Origin: Somniosus microcephalus
Taxonomy: Eukaryota
NCBI GenBank assembly: GCA_052327205.1
Contig: CM126226.1
Coordinates: 48,360,001 to 48,424,000 of the forward strand
Direction of reading: 5' to 3'
Length of the DNA stretch: 64,000 nucleotides
The notes beneath the pieces were generated by a model that saw only the letters and a program-made list of their open reading frames with translations, was not told the DNA's origin and made no database searches. Below, in pieces: positions 2,456-58,959 of the stretch. Made by a program: the position numbers and the translations under genes. Every line of letters begins with the position of its first letter. Positions within the stretch are counted from its first letter, which is position 1.

Positions 2456-4791
2456 TTAATTCGAGTCATTATTGATAACACTAATAAGTGATCTACTTGC
2501 AGATAGTTCAACTGTGTTGACAAATAAGTCCATCGTAATGTGACGGAGCTTCTAAAAGATTGGTCAAATTACTGACCTGAAAATACGTCAAAATCTCTCA
2601 GAATAGACTAAGAAGTTCATTGCCACCCATTTGGCAGTAAACAATCAATTGAATTTGTCTTTCAAAAGTATAAAAATGTATTCAATATGGTTAACTGAGA
2701 ATGGCATGCCCATTTTTTTGAATCACAGAATCATTTTGGTCACAATGTTTTCTGCCATAATGTCCATTACCCTCAAGGGCAAAAGTGATTTCTGAACTAT
2801 AAACTGTTATTTCAGATAACTTGAAAACCTTCTCCTGCTCATCATCCATCTCGAATTGCCTGACGCATCAAGTGGGTTCTTTGCTCAAGGAAATCATTTG
2901 TAACCAGTGTCAACTAAGGAACTTGGTTATGCTTTCTCTCAAACTAAGTAAATTGTAGGGTTGCTCATCTTAATGACAATTCTGAACATTACAATCTACT
3001 GGTGGAAAGGTGGAGTTGCCAAAGTAAGAGGCAATAGGCTTGCAAGTCGTGTAGAAATGTATATGTCGGAGTAGACTGACGACTAGCCATGCTCCTGGGC
3101 AGAAAATGCCTGACCATCAAATATAGCAATAAAAAGTAATCTTTAAGAAGCAGCACTATAATTGTGCTCAAGAACCCTACCCTGCACAAAGTAACTTTGT
3201 AGGGCAAAATGGTAGCTTTTGGTGGGGGGGGGGAAACAAATGGCAACTCAACAGTAATGGAGGTTGATTTTCATGTTCACAGTCCTAGATAGATGAGAAA
3301 TGATAGTTCCTAGAAAGAAAAGGGTATAGATTGAAATACAAAATAGTGCTGTATTTGATTTAGAACGCATGATTTTTAAAAATCTCCAAGGACTGGGTCA
3401 CAAGAGCTGAACAAATCACACCTATGAAGCAAAATCACCAATTTATGTTAGTTCTTGTTAATATGAACGGGTCAACTCTGATTGCATTAAGGAGGGATGT
3501 CACATGAGGGAGAGTAAACACAAAGTTAAAAATTCCATGTGTTGATCTTATATGAACAAGTTTTCAAATGAGAAGACCTTATGTGAAGAACAGGCAGTCA
3601 ACACTGCAGGCAAAGGACTCAAACATGATACCTACTCAAGTTGAGTAATATTCAAATGGAAAACCTCTTATGAGATAAGTCAACATCAATGCTATTCCTT
3701 TTTTTTCATATTTGCAGTGCACAAGGTGATAAACTATTAATTAAATGATGCATGTCAAAAGCAATTTATGCACTTAAAAATCAAACTAACATAATGCAGC
3801 AACCACAACCTGCGAACTATTCGATGTTCCCTTCCATTTGTGGAGTGACAGTCAAAAACCACACTGTGTAAAATGAGGAGAGAATATGCATCTGCTCCCT
3901 TATTTTAAATTGTTTTAGTCCATTCTCCCTTCACTCTAATACAAATTTTAAAAAGTCAACATTTACATGTATAAAATAAATTTGCAGGTCATCTTGCATT
4001 CATTGTTGAAGACCTCAGATGGTGCTACAATGGTAGCATGCTCTGCAGACCATAAAAGGGAGCATTTTCAATGTTGTCCCGCACAACTCAAGCTGGAGTT
4101 TCTGGCTACAGAGTTAATCATTTCTTCATCACTCAAAAATCTTCATCTAACAACATATGCTCATGAAGGGCCTCCCTTGACCCAGTCAGCAGATTTATCA
4201 GCAACATAAAACAATTTTCATCTTAGCGCTGTATGTTGTGACCTGCTGCACGGCACAATGCTTGCCAGGAAAACAAGAAAAAATACCTAGAAATATATAG
4301 GTAGCTTAAACCGCACGCAAGAAGCTGCTTGTACAGTGGTAAACATGTACATTCTTCCTCCCATATGGTTGGCAATGCTCAAACTGTTTGCCTGTTCAGC
4401 TAATGTCAGCTCCTGCTGAGCACATTCCAAGAACGCTGTGGACCCTCATTTCAAGAGGGAAATAAAACTGACATCCAAACATGACAGTAGCTAATGAATT
4501 ATGTTGTTCAGCTGTAACACGGCGGTGGTTGCATGAAAAAGTTCATTCATTATGGCATTATTTTGCTTTTATGCTGGCACTCACATAAGGAGCAGTAGCT
4601 GCAGACAGTAAATTTAATGTGACTTTCCCCCAGTTTTGGCTCATTAGTGTATTTGAAGAACGATTTGAAAATATCAGCTTGATCAGGGATATTGTTTTTG
4701 CTGGAGGCCTAAATAATATATTTGAATAGTGTTATGTTTCCAATTTAAATCAATATTTAGCGGCTCAACATCCCAGTATTTTCTTGAAGTA

Positions 4792-6050: not shown

Positions 6051-8450
6051 CTCTTCTTCTCATTCTTCTTAGGCAGTCCCTCGGAACCAAGGAATGACTT
6101 GCTTCCACACTAAAAATGAGTTCTCAGGTGACTGATGAGTCCAATGTGGGACCTACAGTCTGTCACAGGTGGGGCAGACAGTGGTTGAAGGGGCGGGTGG
6201 GTGGGGTGCTTGGGTTGACGTATGCCTTCTGGCGAAGAGACTCGAGGTGTTCGGCGCCTTCCCGGATGCTTCTCCTCCACTTTGTGCGGTCTTGGGCCGG
6301 GGATTCCCAGGTGTCGGTGGGGATGTTGTACTTTTTCAAGGAGGCTTTGAGAGTGTCCTTGAAGCGTTTCCTCTGCCCACCTGGGGCTCTCTTGCCGTGC
6401 CGGAGCTCCGAGTAGAGCACTTGTTTTGGGAGTCTCGTATCGGGCATGCAGACGATGTGACCCGTCCATCGGAGTTGATCAAGTGTGGTCAAAGCTTCGA
6501 TGCTGGGGATGTTGGCCTGAGCGAGAACACTGTCGTTGGTGCGCCTATCCTGCCAATGGATTTGCAGGATCTTGTGGAGGCAGCGTTGGTGGTACCTCTC
6601 CAGTGCTTTGAGGTGCCTGCTGTACATGGTCCATGTCTCTGAAGCATAGGAGGGCAGGTATCACTACTGCTCTGTAGACCATGAGCTTAGTGCTGGGTTT
6701 GAGGTCCTGGTCTTCAAACACTCTCTTCCTCAGGCGACCGAAGGCTGCACTGGCAGACTGAAGGTGGTGTTGGACTTCGTCGTCTGCCCTTGTTGACAGT
6801 AGGCTCCCGAGGTATGGAAAGTGGTCCACGTTGTCCAAGGCCTCGTCATGGATTTTGATAATCGGGGAGCAGTACTGTGTGGCAGGGGCAGGCTGGTAGA
6901 GGACCTTTGTCTTACGGATGTTTAGTCTAAGGCCCATGCTCTCGTACGCTTCGGTGAAGGTGTTGACGATGGTTTGGAGTTCGGCTTCAGAGTGTGTGCA
7001 GACGCAAGCGTTGTCTGCATACTGTAATTCGATGACAGAGGATGGGACGACCATGGATCTGGACTGGAGATGACGGAGGTTGAACAGTTTCCCATTTGTT
7101 CTGTAGATTAGCTCCACTCCAGCAGGGAGCTTACTGAGGGTGAGATGGAGCATTGCAGCCAGGAAGATCGAGAAGAGCGTTGGTGCGATGACACAGCCTT
7201 GCTTGACCCCGGTCCGTACGTGGATTGGGTCTGTGGTGGATCCGTTGGTCAGGATCATGGCTTGCATGTCATCGTGAAGCAGGTGGAGGATGGTGACAAA
7301 CTTTTGAGGGTAGCTGAATTTGAGGAGGACACTCCATAATCCCTCACGATTAACTGTGTCGAAAGCCTTTGTGAAGTCAAAGAAAGCCATGTACAGTGGT
7401 TGGTGCTGTTCCCTGCATTTCTCTTGTAGTTGATGCGCGGTGAAGATCATGTCCATTGTGCCCCTTAGTGGGCGGATACCGCATTGCGACTCTGGGAGGA
7501 GCTCTTCAGCCACTGGGAGAAGGCGATTGAGGAGGGTTTTTGCAATGACTTTCCCTGTGGCAGACAGCAGGGAGACTCCTCTGTAATTACCGCAATCGAA
7601 CTTGTCACTTTTCTTGAAGATGGTCACGATTATTGAGTCTCTGAGATCCCCTGGCATGCTCTCCTCTTTCCAAATAAGAGAAATGAGTTCATGAATTCGC
7701 GCCAGTAGTGCTTCTCCGCCATGCTTTAGTGCCTCGGCGGGGATTCCATCTGCTCCTAAGGCCTTGTTGTTCTTCAGTTGTCGGATGGCCTTTTCAACCT
7801 CATGCCGGGCTGGGGTTGTGCTGAGGTGGTGGCGGGTAGCATGCTGTGGGATGGAGTTGAGGACACTCACGTCGAAGGCAGAGTCGTGGTTAAGGAGATC
7901 TTCGAGGTGCTTCCTTCCAGCAGGCACCGACTGCCTCTCTGTCCTTGATGAGTATCTCTCCGTTCTTGGCCCACAGTGGGGTAGGACCTTGGGTGCTTGG
8001 GCCGTAGATGGTCTTGACTGCGCTGAAGAATCCACGCACGTCGTGGTTGTCGGCTAGCTGCTGGATCTCCTGCGCTTTCTCCACCCACCATCTGTTCTTT
8101 AGGTCGCGAGTTTTTTGTTGGACCTCGGCCGTCAGGCGTCTGTAGCGCCGCCTTCTTGCTCTCAAGTTCTGTTGCAGTTTCCAGATCAGGAATGCCTTGC
8201 GCTTGCGGCTTATTAGCTCCGGGATCTCCTGGTCGTTCTCGTCGAACCAGTCTTGGTGTTTCCTGGTCGAGTGACTGAGCGTCTCTTCACAGATGCTGAT
8301 TATGGAGGCCTTGAGTGCAGACCAGACGCTGTGGACACTCTGTCTCTGAATCACTGGGAGCCGTCAGGTTGGTTGTGAGGCGCAGGCTGAATAAGGCTTT
8401 CTTAACAGGATCTTTCAGTGCTCCAGCGTTGATTTTCCTGCGGCGGGGCT
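6051..8450 (-). mobile_element. RTE-clade (BovB-like) LINE, 5'-truncated and frameshifted
   Basis: ORFs 7890-8354, 6545-8035 and 6163-6627 join into an RTE ORF (WFDEND, GNYRGVSLL, FDFTKAFDTVNR, GVKQGCVIAPTLF, QYADN, QLRWTGH, GGQRKRFKDTLK, IGLISHLRTH). (GAA)n-type 3' tail at about 6051-6070; visibly GC-richer than the flanks. Confidence 0.92.
6545..8035 (-). pseudogene. Reverse-transcriptase domain of the RTE LINE (inactive)
   Basis: RT motifs present, but catalytic YADD reads YADN and there are frameshifts on both sides. Confidence 0.85.
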
Positions 8451-9050: not shown

Positions 9051-9738
9051 CCAATGTCTGAAAACACATTTAAAGATATGCTTAATAAAAAATGCTTAAG
9101 AGTATATGGTTTTCATTAACTCATTGCACAGGGAGGGCACGTTTCTTGGGTTACACTTCAGAATTAATGAGGAGACATATGTTCAGAAATGGTATCAAGG
9201 CAGCCCAATTAACTTGTGAGGAATCATGTCATATTACAGAAAGTCCATTGCAGGGATTGATAAAAATCTGACTACACACTTATTTGAGATGGTGAATTAG
9301 TATTCAGGTCAAAGCATTCAAACACGAGGTGCAATGCATAAATGGTCCTCAGCATTTTCAAGTTCATAAACAAGCCAAAGGATGATGAGAAGCAGTCAAG
9401 TTTGAAGACAACCCAGAAATTAGAAAGCTATCGAAGCAACAAGTCTTTTGGGGAGAATTTTTCATGCTCAATAAGACAAGGGCCTCAAGGTTTCGCTGAA
9501 TAAACATTTTTGCACATCTGGTGCCTAGTGTCTTATAACAAATTATACCAGGTCAAGTATAGCATTCATAGATGAAGAGTAAAGCTTTCTCTGTTCTATT
9601 CGAACAATATGCCCAATTCCCATATTTTGAGCAAACCTACATCATTGCTAGTGTTGCCAACCCTCCAGGCTTGTCTTGGATTCTCCAGGGATTGAAGATT
9701 AATCTTCAGGACACTGTTGCGAGCAAACCAGGAAAAAA

Positions 9739-10027
9739 ATAGAACCATAGAAATTTACGACACAGGAGGCCATTCGACCCATCATGTCTGTGCTGGCCCA
9801 TAAAGAGCTCTCCAGCCTAATCCCACTTTCCAGCTCTTGGGCCGTAGCCCTGTAGGTTACGGCACTTCAAGTGCATATCCAAGTACTTTTTAAATGTGAT
9901 GAGGGTCTCTGCCTCTACCACCCTTTCAGGCAGTGAGTTCCAGACCCCCACCACCCTCTGGGTGAAAAAAGTTCTCCTCAACTCCCCTTTAATCCTCCTA
10001 CCAATTACTTTAAATCTATGCCCCCTG
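9739..10027 (-). mobile_element. CR1 LINE 3' fragment
   Basis: ORF 9817-10071 RGHRFKV...FFTQRVVGVWNSLP is the CR1 ORF2 C-terminus, followed by the hairpin/(ttctat) tail. Confidence 0.9.
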
Positions 10028-10081
10028 AAATCAGAGACTTCAAATAAAATTGTGCTTTTCCACACTTTCATTTATTAGATA

Positions 10082-10712
10082 CTAGCTGGGGGAGCCCGGG
10101 TTTGCCAGGGCTGTTTTGGGCCGGGCGGTTTAAATCGAGTCCCAGGCTTTTGGGCCCTGTCTGTGTCCCTCTCTCAATCTGCTGCTGGGCAACATTTCTA
10201 CCTTTTAACACCTTGAAAGATGAAAGTGAAAGTACTTATAAAACGTTTTTGGTAAATCTCTTAAAAATAACATAAGAGATACTAACTTTTTCGAAGCCGG
10301 ATGAGCAGATTTTGAGCTGGAAGTAAATGGGGTTTTTAGCTTGAGGCAATGGCTGCCACATCCCGGAGATGAAAACGATTAGTCCCGCCCACAGACGCAG
10401 CGATTGGCCAGCCATCAGGCGACTGAACTGTAGGATTGGTCAATCGTGACGGCACAGGATTGGTCGAACCTTGACGTCAGTCAATCAATGCTAAGTAGCA
10501 GATAATGAGTTTAATTTTGAAGGTTTTTTGCATAAGGCGCGAACAATTTTCGTCCGACCGAAAAGTAAATACGCTTACGACTGTCCCGGAACCGTAAGCT
10601 TTCTTTGGAGGTAACGCACGCGTAGGAACGCTCTAACTTTCGAGCGCATAGCCGGACAGACGCACACCGGAGGACAGAAGGACAGACAGACAGACGATAA
10701 AAATATTGGAGA
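10082..10712 (-). mobile_element. Non-autonomous Helitron (631 bp), both termini present
   Basis: Minus strand: A|TCTCCAATATT... then a (ctgt)n microsatellite near the 5' end. The 3' end has a GC hairpin ccctgg-caaa-cccggg about 10 nt before CTAG|T. AT target, no TSD. Confidence 0.78.
10345..10545. promoter_or_regulatory. CpG-rich promoter-like motif cluster inside the Helitron
   Basis: YY1-like aatggctgcc at about 10349, GC box gtcccgccc 10382-10390, ATTGG at 10403/10435/10459, TGACGTCA 10472-10479, TTTGAA 10516-10521, GGCGCGAA 10536-10543. Confidence 0.55.
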
Positions 10713-12877
10713 TGGGGGGGGGGGGGGGGGGGGGGCTGTTTCACAAACAGTCACGATTAATCTAATTAATCTAAAAGAGTCTGTTCCCTTTCCAATTGGC
10801 CGTGGGAAGGCAGTGCACCTGGAGGATGGACCAGTGGCAGGAGTGTGGGGGGGGGGGGGGGGGCAGGCTGGTTTGAGGTGGGAGGTCATGTGATGAAATC
10901 TCCAGGAATACACCCAGCCAGAGTTGGCAAACCCAATCACTGCACTAGCATACATTTTCTGCTTTCCCATCAGCAGGCCATTGTTATGTCCTCTCTGCAT
11001 GAGATTGATAATTCAGAGCCAAATTATTGAAATGTTTTGAACTATGTACCCATGCCTATTAGGAGATTGGTTGAGACTGCCCAAACTCAATCCAGGTGAC
11101 TGGACAGTGTTCTCGCCTCCACTTCACTATACAGTCCCCCAGCAATACATTACTTCTTAAAGGTATGCCAACAAAACAGCATGTTCGTTTTGAGAACATT
11201 GTCCTTTCTGCTCCTCCAAAGTGCAACTCTGAAGGAGGAGAAAGGTCAATACGCTGCTAAAAATTTACCTGTAAATACGGTGAGGCATGTTCAGCTTATT
11301 TAAAGTGACATTTAAAAGTCAATAGGGGCTCCCAATTTTTTTTTATAAAATGAGATCAAGGAACACGCAGGTACGAAAAGCAATTTCGCAAGATCAATTC
11401 TCTCAGCTGACCAAGACTAACACAAACATAAAACAATGGACATGAATTTCAAAGCAACGTTCCCCCTTCAACACATTTACTGTTATGTGCTTCAATGTTA
11501 AAACACACACACTTAACTTAGAAACTGAGTGACCTCTTATGTTCCCGTTTGGAAGAAATGCATCAGCTGCAAATGTTACTAATAGTCGCTTTAGAAAATG
11601 TAATACATGGCTGATTTTGTTGGCTTTTTATGGCACTTCAAAGTATTAGTGGCACTTTGAAGTTTGTTTACCCTTGAATATATCTTCAGTATTGAGTAAT
11701 TCAGATTTGTTTTGGTTTTTGCTTGCTTGGTATTTATAAAAACATGTTTGGATACGTGATAATAAATATTGACCAGCAGTGCAACAAAGGATCAATGTGA
11801 ATATATTAACTACTCTATTTATTGCAATAACCTCATCTGGGAATATATCCAAGAAAGGTCAGGGTTTTCAAACCTATTCATTCTCAATGGTTACAAACTG
11901 ACTGCTACTTAGCCACAAAGTCCTGCATATATGCCAGGTTTTCCTTGAAAGCAACAGTTTTTCATTTTGACATCTTTTTGATTAAGAAAAACAGTTTTGT
12001 ACTAAGAATAATTATGATTCAACAATTGCTGGGAGGCGAAAATGAGAAATACTAAAAAAAGAGATACTGATAAATGCCACGTCAGCAGCACATTTCCTGC
12101 TGGCATATTAACATGAAATAAGACCCTGGTGCATTTGTCCATATTTTTATTCTGACTTTGAATTCCTTGAAATAAAATGTAACTGGATTATAACATCATG
12201 GCAGTATAGTTTGTAGTGACATGTTGTCATATCCTGACAGTAAATCCGGTATTGCAGTGAGTGAAGTTAAAAGGAAAAAAGGTTGTTTTAATCATTACTC
12301 AAATTCACAAGGTATTGCAATGCATCACAGAATGTGAAATACAAAATTTAGAAACTATTTTTAAATCCAGCAATTAAATGGAGTATAGCACATAGGCATT
12401 TTGCACAATCGCTACTTCATGTTACTACTATAGTCAAACAACATCACTATGATTATTTTAAAGCTTTTGATACCCATCCTCACTCACAAATGAAATACAT
12501 CAATTAAATATACAAAAATGAAATACACAGCATTTGATTTCTAATCAAAGAGCTGCTACTTTGAATATAGCCTCCTGACATTTTCAAAGCCTGCCTAATT
12601 GGACAGCTTTCATAATTTCTTGGTACAACCACTAGATGGAGCACCACACAGTAAAGGTATAACCAGCAGTAAAAGGCCCCATCACATCGTAGCACACCTG
12701 TCACTGTCAGCTGATGAAGTTTGCAGCCAAGAGTGCCCTGCCTTCCCAGTTGAAAGAGGAAGTGTGGCAGTTGGAGACAGCTAGAAGGAAGGACAAAAGA
12801 AATTAAAATTACCAGACTCACTCTACATGTGAGCTGGATGTAACTTAAGAACATGCAAAATGATAAGACTGATAACC

Positions 12878-19462: not shown

Positions 19463-20141
19463 AACATAGAAACATAGAAGATAGGAGCAGGAGTAGGCCA
19501 TTCGGCCCCTCGAGCCTGCTCTGCCATTCAATGAGATCATGGCTGATCATCCAAATTCAGTACCCTGTTCCCGCCTTCTCTCCATATCCCTTGATCCCTT
19601 TAGCCTTAAGAAATATATCCAACTCCTTCTTGAATATATTTAATGAATTGGCCTCAACTGCCTTCTTTGGTAGAGAATTCCACAGGTTCGCCACTCTCTG
19701 GGTGAAGAAATTCCTCCTCATCTCAGTCCTAAATGGCTTACCCCTTAGCCTTAGACTGTGACCCCTGTTTCTGGACTCCCCGACCATCTGGAACATCCTC
19801 CCTGCATCTAGTCTGTCCAGTCCTGTCAGAATTTTATAAGTTTCAATGAGATCCCCTCTCATTCTTCTAAACTCCAGCAAGTCCAAGCCCAATCGACTCA
19901 ATCTCTCCTCATACGTCATTCCTGCCATCCCAGGTATCAGTCTGGTGAATCTTCGCTGCACTCCTTCCATGGCAAGAACATCCTTCCTCAGATAAGGCGA
20001 CCAAAACTGCACACAATACTCCAGATATGGTCTCACCAAGGCCCTGTACAACTGCAGCAAGACATCCTTGTTCCTGTACTCAAACCCTCTCGCTACGAAG
20101 GCCAACATACCATTTGCCTTCTTAACCGCCTGCTGCACCTG
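19463..20141 (-). mobile_element. CR1 LINE 3' fragment
   Basis: QVQQAVKKANGMLAF..LYRALVRPYLEYCVQFWSPY..RRMRGDLIETYKI..FFTQRVANLWNSLP, with CR1 tail. Confidence 0.93.
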
Positions 20142-20375
20142 AATGGAGTCAAGAGAGCAGGAAGTGGGTCTTGTGGAGAAGATGAACTCAGAGAGGGCAT
20201 GAGGGGAGAAACTAGAATAAGACACGGATTTGAGGCTGGGGCACTGGGCAATTCTAGGAAAGGTTTGTCTTGGTGGGCAATGTTGTGCTGGCTGGAATTC
20301 CAGGACCATTCTAGGGAGCGGATGGAGGAGAGGATAAGAATTACACAGATTAACAGTTGCCAAATAAAAACTACC
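20142..20375 (-). mobile_element. Degraded internal L2-like ORF2 fragment abutting the CR1
   Basis: ...FSPHALSEFIFSTRPTSCSLDSI resembles the L2 motif (K/R)PTSCSLDPIP upstream of the RT domain. Confidence 0.55.
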
Positions 20376-20634
20376 ACCATTGGTGATTAACCTTGGTTTC
20401 CTAGTCTCTAGTCAATAATCTTGATTTTCACCATCCTATTGGATACCAATACATTTTGCTTTGGCTGCAAGTGTTATGTGAAGGACCTTATTAAAATAGT
20501 TCCTGAAAGTCAAAACACGTTATCCACCAAGTTACCATCATTCATCCACAATGGTACATCTTCAAGAAACTGCAATAAATTTCACCCTGGCCTGCCTTTC
20601 ATAAATCCAGGTTGGCTCTGAGTTATTACCTTCA

Positions 20635-30785: not shown

Positions 30786-30794
30786 ACTTGCCTC
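30786..30794 (-). promoter_or_regulatory. Non-canonical GC 5' splice site (GAG|GCAAGT)
   Basis: RERE similarity stops exactly here (orthologues continue ...YRPG-DCVYIE). Reading through hits TAG two codons later. The site matches the U2 donor consensus at every position except +2. Confidence 0.75.
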
Positions 30795-31092
30795 CAGGCC
30801 TGTAGACAACATCATCCTCTGTTACAAATGAAGTTATATCTCCGGTCTCTGCTCTCTCATAACGCGATTTCTTTTTAGGTGGTTTCTTTATTTTTGACTT
30901 TTTCCCAGACTCCTCGTTAGTAGCACTGTCTTTGTCGTTGTCTTCATCTTCAGTGTGGTCACTTTCCGCATAATTCTTCGCACCTCCTTCCAAAGTGCAG
31001 CTGCGGCGCGGCCTGGAATGTTCATTCTCTCGTTTATCCCTTCTATCTCTCTCCTTGTCCCGGTCACGATCTTTCTCTTTATCTGCTGTCAT
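30792..31092 (-). CDS. RERE: First coding exon of RERE (arginine-glutamic acid dipeptide repeats protein / atrophin-2): 100 codons + 1 nt, running into the start of the BAH domain
   Basis: Translation [53 protein letters not shown]...[31 protein letters not shown] matches the recalled vertebrate RERE N-terminus. There is an in-frame upstream stop near the exon start and no upstream ATG. The exon ends in phase 1 at GGAG|GCAAGT. Confidence 0.95.
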
Positions 31093-57006: not shown

Positions 57007-57912
57007 TCATAGAGTCATAGAGTTTTACAGCACAGAAAGAGGCCCTTCGGCCCATCGTGTCTGCGCCGCCCATCCATCCCTGTCCAGTCTAATCCCATTT
57101 TCCAGCATTTGGTCCATAGCCTTGTATGCAATGGCATTTCAAGTGCTCATCCAAATGCTTCTTGAATGTTGTGAGGGTTCCTGCCTCTACCACCCTTTTA
57201 GGCATTGAGTTCCACATTCCAACCACCCTCTGGGTGAAAAAGTTCCTCCTCAAATCCCCTCTAAATCTCCTGCCCCTTACCCTGAATCTATGCCCCCTTG
57301 TTATTGACCCCCCCCACTAAGGGGAAAAGTTCCTCTTTATCTACCCTATCTATGCCCCTCATTATTTTGTACACCTCAATCAGGTCCCCCCTCAGCCTTC
57401 TCTGCTCCAAGGAAAACAACTCCAGCCTGTCCAGCCTCTCTTCATAGCTGAGGCGCTCCATCCCAGGTAACATCCTGGTGAATCTTCTCTGCACCCTCTC
57501 CAAAGCAATCACATCCTTCCTATAGTGAGGCGACCAGAACTGCACACAGTACTCCAGCTGTGGCCTCACCAGCGTTTTGTACAGCTCCATCATAACCTCC
57601 CTGCTCTTATATTCTATGCCTCGGCTAATGAAGGCAAGTATCCCATATGCCTTTTTAACCACCTTATCTACCTGCTCCGCTGCCTTCAGGGATCTATGTA
57701 CATGTACACCAAGGTCCCTCTGACCCTCTGTACTTCCTAGGGTCCTACCACTCATTGTGTATTCCCTTGCCTTATTTGTCCGTCCAAAATGCATCACCTC
57801 GCACTTTTCAGGGTTAAATTCCATTTGCCACTTTTCCGCCCATCTGACCAACCCGTTTATATCGTCCTGTAGCCGGAGGCTTTCCTCCTCGCAATTTACC
57901 ACCCCACCAATA
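57007..57912 (-). mobile_element. CR1 LINE 3' fragment with a long open ORF2 C-terminus
   Basis: ORF 57288-58019 LQDDINGLVRWAEKWQMEFNPEKCEVMHFG..RDLGVHV..LEYCVQFWSPHY; tail (ctctatga)2. Confidence 0.93.
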
Positions 57913-58959
57913 CACTGCTCCAACATTTTAAACATTACCATCATGGTTACTGAAGATTTTAGATGATCCTCTCTTGGCACTAGTATTTGGCAGAATGGAT
58001 TTTTACCACTCAAAATCATTTAAGTCATAAAATATCCATTTAGAAGAGTTTGAGGTATAAAATACATTACCAAAGAATATATGCTCTAAATTTATTATCT
58101 AACTATGCTTTACAGAGGATTACATATAGTCTGGAGTGTGTTAGATAGGGTTTAAATGGCATGACAATCTTGAAGTGTTCACAGAGAGAGAAAAGAAAGA
58201 TTTTTGTCACTGCCAAACTACCTACTCCTGCAGCTACACAAAGAAAGCAATTTACTAGAAAGAAAGCAAGAAAGACCAAAAGAAAGAAATTTACTAGAAA
58301 TTCAGGAAAAAAATTCAAGAATACAAAAGACGTGCATTTATATAGCGCCTTTCATGGCCTCAGGACCTCCCAAAGGACTTTACAGCCAATTGAGTAAATT
58401 TACTCTTAATAGAAGTTAGCATCTTTTCACCCTTCCTCAAGGTGACACTGAAGGAAGCTCCACGGCCAGCAGAGCTCCAGCATCTCATCCAAGTGACCAA
58501 TCTTAACATGAGCATCACTGAGCAGTTTGAAAGATACTGCAACTACACCGGATCCTATCCTCACTTGACCTCCACTTTCTAGCAAGGGTTACTGGCTAGG
58601 GATCAGGGGTGAGAATCCTGGCTGAACGTTCCCTGTTTTTGCCCACTTGTAACTTATCATTGGAAACTCACGGAGATTAAACGTCAGCTTTGCTCCTTCG
58701 GATGTTGACCTTTCAAAAAAGTGGGCTGCAGTTCATTTTTGACATCTATTGCGGCAAACAGTCAAATTGGGCACTTATTTGCTTTGCGTATATCACACAC
58801 ATCAAGTAAGTTTGCAACCATTTTCTTAAACTACACAAGATTACAGTGCAATTCAGCGGACTGCACTTTCCTTTTATTCGGATATACAGCCAACGTTTTA
58901 AACACAAGTGTCACAATCAGCATTGGGAAAATTTAAAACTTATAAATTATAACATTTTC

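Follow-up and report, generated by a model that had tools for sequence, protein, structure and literature searches.

The window analysed here is a 64,000-bp stretch of contig CM126226.1 from Somniosus microcephalus, and all positions refer to it. Its host gene is RERE. An exon at 31092-30792 on the minus strand matches the RERE of sharks and rays at 96-99% identity, and a protein search placed further RERE exons on the same contig and the same strand, the next one ~5.2 kb past the window start. The Helitron copy described below sits in the ~36-kb RERE intron after the first coding exon, in RERE-sense orientation and ~15.6 kb before the next exon, which bears out the original prediction that it lies inside RERE. 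This intron opens with GC (GAG|GCAAGT, window 30792-30786, minus strand), and joining the exons across the GC donor gives YRPG-DCVYIES, the same as in shark RERE; to judge from its sequence, it looks like a GC-AG intron. A search for ELM2 found no exon on contig CM126226.1, and a protein atlas search with the RERE exon returned no match. Elsewhere in the window, a LINE fragment at 6100-8400 (minus strand) carries a reverse-transcriptase domain (Pfam RVT_1), and 19557-20411 and 57288-58019 are presumably LINE fragments as well. The features of the locus are listed here, where counts out of seven refer to aligned autonomous (RepHel-coding) elements.

30792..31092, minus strand: RERE first coding exon, from the ATG to a GC-type donor (protein identity)
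9648..10933, no strand assigned: older dispersed repeat hosting the Helitron (empty paralogous sites)
10082..10697, minus strand: non-autonomous Helitron1 copy, 616 bp, on the RERE strand (ends and empty sites)
10082..10111, minus strand: 3' terminus, a GC-rich hairpin (10094-10111) and CTAG, then a host T (DNA fold -5.7 kcal/mol)
10130..10344, minus strand: 3' half of the element, with no match in 20 RepHel stretches bar one 26-nt match and a sister non-autonomous copy
10345..10697, minus strand: part homologous to the 5' end of RepHel-coding Helitrons (71-78% identity, ending right after GCCAT)
10346..10356, minus strand: degenerate YY1 site GCAGCCATTGC (by alignment; GCCATCTT in 7/7 autonomous elements)
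10358..10368, minus strand: dead splice donor CCG|GGATGT (AG|GTGAGT in autonomous elements), 29 nt from the GC box; GT in 0/36 copies
10385..10390, minus strand: GC box CCGCCC, 15 nt past the last CCAAT (6/7 autonomous elements)
10403..10463, minus strand: three CCAAT boxes of NF-Y type (32-bp pair, 10435 and 10403, in 7/7 autonomous elements; third in 4/7)
10472..10479, no strand assigned: perfect CRE TGACGTCA, the sole one in the window (0/7 autonomous elements)
10516..10543, plus strand: CHR-like TTTGAA (10516-10521) and E2F-like GGCGCGAA (10536-10543), 14 nt apart, chance-level
10608..10616, plus strand: donor-like GAG|GTAACG with GT at 10611 (6/9 match to the U1 consensus)

The ends of the copy confirmed that it is a non-autonomous Helitron1 (HLE1) element. 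Its 5' end, fixed by empty sites, is the TCG at 10697 after a host A. It lacks the family's (TA)n-rich first ~17 nt and starts at an internal TC; most sister copies begin TCTATATATATAAA, which is absent here. At the other end, CTAG|T after the hairpin closes the element at 26 of 30 loci, the remainder being three ends missed by the search pattern and one that reads CTAT. Insertion was at A|T without target duplication, as 89 empty paralogous sites read straight across, and the junction of the copy with its flank is unique in the genome. Among the open reading frames of the copy there is no RepHel ORF. Using the defining criteria for HLE1 given in the accessible text of PMC11417382, we found a 5' TC, a 3' hairpin with CTRR, A|T insertion and ends in common with RepHel-coding elements; hairpin-CAGCTAG 3' ends like those of this family occur in the RepHel-coding stretches L063 and L068. 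The call of a Helitron in the original prediction was correct on the strength of the TC and hairpin-CTAG ends, the A|T insertion and the 89 empty sites.

The host of the insertion is itself a repeat, which contributes an AATAAA at 10076 (minus strand) immediately beyond the Helitron end. We also observed a second, different family variant (L143) at the same A|T of another copy of this older repeat. Because the L143 copy has the same flanks, the site is part of the older repeat, and the use of the same A|T in two of its copies suggests a favoured landing site. Close to the 3' end, most sister copies have a duplication of ~67 bp, which is missing from the RERE-intron copy. Family copies often stand head-to-tail behind the CTAG end of another Helitron, autonomous ends included (L003, L007, L019, L021, L022, L025, L026, L028, L072, L075 and L076). 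An own-genome search gave 3780 first-look candidates, a figure that includes sister families and is not the copy number of this family; 40 were scored, the best of them at 92-97%. With an exact 35-mer searched genome-wide, we counted at least 450 copies of the donor-dead family and none with the reversed control. Such a number of dispersed copies points to mobilisation of the non-autonomous family by RepHel.

Next to the 5' end lies the motif cluster at 10345-10620 that the original prediction had described as a promoter cassette. All of the motifs named there were found where it had placed them, and the YY1-like site at 10348-10353 lacks the CCATNTT core. ATTGG (CCAAT on the minus strand) occurs at 10403, 10435 and 10459, giving spacings of 32 and 24 bp, and the CpG o/e of the cassette is 1.28, against 0.37 for the whole window. 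Scoring used the known motif consensuses and the U1 consensus. In 5000 dinucleotide shuffles of 10345-10620, we obtained p=0.0006 for three strict NF-Y sites, p=0.028 for three plain CCAAT boxes and p=0.006 for the CRE, values that flatter the motifs because these were chosen after the fact. Three CCAAT boxes, a GC box and a CRE occurred jointly in 0/5000 shuffles, and three strict NF-Y sites were present in 0/1257 other 276-bp windows. Taken singly, the GC box (0.11), CHR (0.30), E2F (0.21) and the plus-strand donor (0.09) were at chance level. Sites in the same 6/9 U1-match class as this donor occur 3.5 times per kb in the window, and the plus-strand GAG|GTAACG is likely incidental. An Rfam scan of 9500-11500 gave three weak matches under the gathering scores, none of them inside the cassette. 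We regard the NF-Y/GC/CRE cluster as a real promoter-type cassette by its motif content, with putative activity in the RERE-intron copy.

The cassette was then followed across the non-autonomous family. Among 36 copies from the 30 best loci, the CRE was present in 36, the three CCAAT boxes in 35, 35 and 34, the GC box in 31, CHR in 35, E2F in 30 and the plus-strand donor in 31. A further set of 79 copies was taken from the first 100 places, in genome order, of the 35-mer matches, leaving out known copies, tandem second copies and the last rows. It had the CRE in 70, the CCAAT boxes in 71, 75 and 77, CHR in 73, E2F in 52 and the plus-strand donor in 48; the GC box and the dead donor were fixed in this set by the 35-mer pattern that picked it. 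Both counts show the motifs to be a property of the whole family, spread by transposition, as had been proposed, and the motif content of the RERE copy is nothing special within the family. The donor position reads (A/C/G)G|GGATGT in 36/36 copies, with GG in place of GT. The perfect CRE was likely gained in the non-autonomous lineage, since it is family-wide (70/79 and 36/36) yet found in 0/7 autonomous elements, one of which has TGACGTCG.

The retained CpGs had been listed among the promoter-like features, and this part of the original prediction did not hold as a sign of protection. In the 79 copies, CpG transitions numbered 256/3823 (6.7%), compared with 261/11274 (2.3%) at other C/G positions. 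The RERE-intron copy is average in this respect: 3 of its 50 CpGs have decayed, and 48/79 copies have no more than that. It is 1.1% divergent from its nearest group at non-CpG positions, and its CpG richness reflects youth. The family-wide decay indicates germ-line methylation of the family on average, a sequence-based statement that says nothing of a single copy or tissue; the RERE-intron copy probably is methylated and serves RERE in no special way. Protection of the CpG in the CRE was considered separately and rejected: none had decayed in the first 36 copies, but 5 had in the 79 genome-order copies, like several other CpGs.

We found the source of the cassette among the RepHel-coding relatives. 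RepHel copies are plentiful in the genome (150 of 407 candidates were scored, all above the Pfam cut-off), and 20 stretches around such copies were compared with the RERE-intron element. Its 5' part was matched at 68-83% in 11/20 of them, upstream of the ORF and on the ORF strand. Of the nine stretches without a match, some have their 5' end outside the stretch, and three (L061, L077 and L079) show a different CCAAT array and donor. Read out, these elements run from the TC end through the CCAAT boxes, GTGGGCGGG, AG|GTGAGT, GCCGCCATCTT and a pyrimidine-rich stretch to TTTTCATAACAG, followed by a single base and the ATG. Seven of the 11 matching elements were aligned with the RERE-intron copy, at 71-78% identity up to GCCAT, the point at which homology ends. 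All seven autonomous elements retain the last two CCAAT boxes, 32 bp apart in five and 33 and 41 bp apart in the others; the GC box is kept in 6/7, and 7/7 have both the YY1 core CCATCTT and a donor placed 29 nt from the GC box. The same elements have E2F in 0/7, a perfect CRE in 0/7, CHR in 2/7 and the plus-strand donor in 1/7. Invariant positions made up 20/21 in the NF-Y pair, GC box and GCCAT, 115/252 in the background and 10/31 in the CRE, CHR, E2F and plus-strand donor, counts that are indicative, the aligned rows being related, and carry no probability. The donor at 10610 put forward in the original prediction is thus not the one that was maintained; the conserved donor is on the minus strand and is dead in the family.

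Downstream of the cassette, the acceptor TTTTCATAACAG precedes the RepHel ATG in 14/20 stretches, the donor is present in 12 and both in 10, at donor-to-acceptor distances of 502-3646 nt. Fixed splice signals around so variable an intron suggest a 5'-UTR intron that is used. CT-rich repeats of low complexity enlarge this intron in L062, L064, L072 and L076, to as much as several kb. In one autonomous element, L074, the ATG opens an N-terminal STPR-repeat piece, followed by a frame break and then a 1389 aa ORF with Rep and PIF1 (domains Helitron_like_N and PIF1). In a second RepHel subfamily (L079:890-1460), a 69-bp tandem repeat holds five or six CCAAT boxes, alongside a GC box and another donor; the acceptor and ATG are those of the first subfamily, and loose X7 read ends match the second. 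The donor-intact GC box-donor module gave 9,289 exact matches genome-wide, with none for the reversed control.

No RNA run was listed with a match to the RERE-intron element, a result that favours neither side, and RNA evidence was sought on L074 with reads from ~24% and ~31% of two RNA runs (X7 and X8) whose species label is that of the best DNA match. Reads in the RepHel frame were almost wholly sense (L074 bins 4394-4561: 46-59 vs 0-1 in X7 and 19-43 vs 0-2 in X8), which indicates that RepHel is transcribed. Read depth was highest on both strands at the GC box-donor bin, which is fed by thousands of copies. In X8, the balance of reads shifted at ~3385 from antisense to sense (peak 665 vs 328), a strand switch near the cassette that X7 did not cleanly repeat. 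Sense depth in X7 rose from 5 to 33 in the bin with the acceptor. No donor-to-acceptor spliced read was among those listed for L074 in X7 or X8; a first exon of ~13 nt would be too short for the tool. Many unspliced reads crossed the donor (303 in X7 and 518 in X8, with loose ends at 3544/3547), for which the gene-less copies, numbering in the thousands, may be the source. We infer that the RepHel 5'-UTR intron is spliced.

Because the cassette matches the front end of RepHel-coding elements, we consider it highly probable that it is the 5' region of the Helitron1 family, likely the promoter of the RepHel transposase, left behind in a short copy that has no gene and a dead donor. NF-Y and Sp-type factors would start minus-strand transcription slightly past the GC box, and a very short non-coding first exon (~13 nt) would be spliced to the transposase exon. 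The non-autonomous family has kept the NF-Y pair and the GC box; in place of the donor GT it has GG, its YY1 core is broken, it likely gained a perfect CRE, and all that lay downstream has been replaced by a different 215 bp and 3' end. A transcript from the RERE-intron copy would be RERE-sense, would lack a strong donor and would meet the AATAAA ~290 nt on. Transcript fate is known to depend on the balance between U1 and polyadenylation sites. Between 10400 and 8500 we found no minus-strand site with at least 7/9 U1 matches, and given the dead donor, the lack of a strong replacement and the AATAAA at 10076, such a transcript would probably be short and unstable. A RERE isoform or an antisense RNA from this copy is unlikely, and the cassette is probably an ordinary one without a special role for RERE. 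Of the original prediction, the Helitron in a RERE intron and its family-wide promoter-like cluster stand, and the promoter capture, the cell-cycle label, the plus-strand donor and the CpG protection find no support.

Capture of this promoter by a Helitron from a host gene, to which the original prediction alluded, is not supported, the cassette being continuous with the 5' end of RepHel elements, ahead of the transposase. In an older event, the ancestor of the whole Helitron lineage might have captured a host housekeeping promoter, with its short first exon, donor and YY1 intron start, which now serves as the transposase promoter. The layout, with its short first exon, does resemble that of a TATA-less vertebrate promoter, and one RepHel subfamily is arranged differently, which implies that 5' regions are exchangeable. 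HelibatN3 with its NUBPL promoter offers a precedent, and bat Helitrons are described as having taken the promoters of 15 genes (accessible parts of PMC4224331 and PMC4778049). We nevertheless hold ancient capture to be unlikely: the motifs run on from the terminal sequence instead of lying between the ends as cargo, and both RepHel subfamilies contain the CTCATTAG..GACCAATC and GTGGGCGG units. No donor gene turned up among the best-scoring of the thousands of Helitron copies that the genome searches return.

The original prediction also read the cassette as a DREAM/MMB-type promoter firing on the plus strand, where it would give RNA antisense to RERE or couple the element to proliferating or germ cells. 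On that strand the CCAAT boxes do come before TTTGAA, with one 32-bp spacing, as in cyclin B2-type promoters, where, according to PMC3287175, the requirement is limited to a conserved CHR and three CCAAT boxes at ~33-bp spacing, and CHR can act without a CDE. The accessible text of PMC12001565 reports Myb ChIP peaks at the 5' end of Xenopus Heli1Xen1. CHR is found in 73/79 family copies, although motif presence in young copies reflects only their age, and the antisense lean of X8 reads upstream of the L074 cassette was not repeated in X7. Against this reading are the motifs themselves, with shuffle values of p=0.30 for CHR, p=0.21 for E2F and p=0.09 for the donor, and with 2, 0 and 1 of 7 autonomous elements retaining them, respectively. 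In the accessible part of PMC5716687, the CDE lies 4 nt before CHR and the CLE 4 nt after E2F; here the CDE position reads TGAGTT, and the gap between E2F and CHR is 14 nt where 4 are required. Like cyclin B2, then, the cassette has several CCAAT boxes, one pair ~32 bp apart, and TTTGAA nearby; unlike such CDE/CHR promoters, it has no CDE, the wrong E2F-CHR spacing, an unconserved CHR and a second CCAAT spacing of 24 bp. We regard this DREAM/MMB reading as very improbable, and the cell-cycle label for the family is without support beyond chance.

Co-option of the RERE-intron copy as an intragenic promoter or enhancer, for instance for a transcript skipping the first coding exon, is a reading to which we give very little credence. 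The copy shares the RERE strand, the next exon follows at ~15.6 kb, the NF-Y boxes, GC box and CRE of the copy are intact, and bat Helitrons make truncated transcripts of this sort (PMC4778049, in the part accessible). The donor is dead throughout the family, however, with no strong replacement within 1.9 kb and an AATAAA after the element, and the copy is young (1.1% non-CpG divergence) with average CpG decay. It is just as doubtful that the lineage, having seeded more than 9,000 NF-Y/Sp promoter-plus-donor modules, saw its donor-less family reshaped by loss of the donor and gain of the CRE and E2F-like site into a germline- or cAMP-responsive mobile promoter or enhancer, whose RERE copy would drive, via a cryptic donor, an isoform missing the arginine-glutamate repeats as well as the beginning of the BAH domain (the following methionine is residue 132 in P0003).

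Several known systems are close to the shark family. This family shares with non-autonomous HLE1 elements, as described in the accessible text of PMC11417382, the 5' TC, hairpin and CTAG, A|T insertion, RepHel-shared ends and head-to-tail stacking. It differs from them in that ~350 bp from the 5' region of its partner is retained, likely transposase promoter included, and the RERE-intron copy also lacks the usual first ~17 nt. Spread of promoters by Helitrons is already known from bats, by capture: HelibatN3 of Myotis bats is likewise a short Helitron by which a promoter was spread to sites in the hundreds or thousands, some of them intronic, and its promoter and donor were captured from NUBPL, the donor being a working exon trap (PMC4778049 and PMC4224331, accessible parts). 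In contrast, the shark cassette traces to the Helitron's own coding relatives: it is present in autonomous elements, and the donor, intact at 9,289 sister-family sites, is dead in this family (GT absent in 36/36). Heli1Xen1 of Xenopus laevis, to which we liken the shark element by description, is likewise a vertebrate Helitron1 with a presumed 5' promoter, deduced from Myb and Foxn4 ChIP peaks, and with low RepHel expression; the accessible portion of that article (PMC12001565) does not mention sharks. The literature listings that we searched, which covered work outside subscription journals, showed no account of a CCAAT/YY1 promoter or 5'-UTR intron belonging to a vertebrate Helitron itself, and none of shark Helitrons.

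For RERE, the insertion probably means nothing. For the interpretation of similar loci it counsels caution, as a promoter-like cassette inside a Helitron has not necessarily been captured. For transposon biology, the comparison outlines the likely anatomy of a vertebrate Helitron transposase promoter: an NF-Y pair, a GC box, a tiny first exon, a donor, a YY1 site and a 5'-UTR intron. The donor-dead family would be unable to trap exons via the ancestral donor, and exon trapping is better sought among the 9,289 donor-intact modules, with those lying in sense orientation in host introns as candidates.
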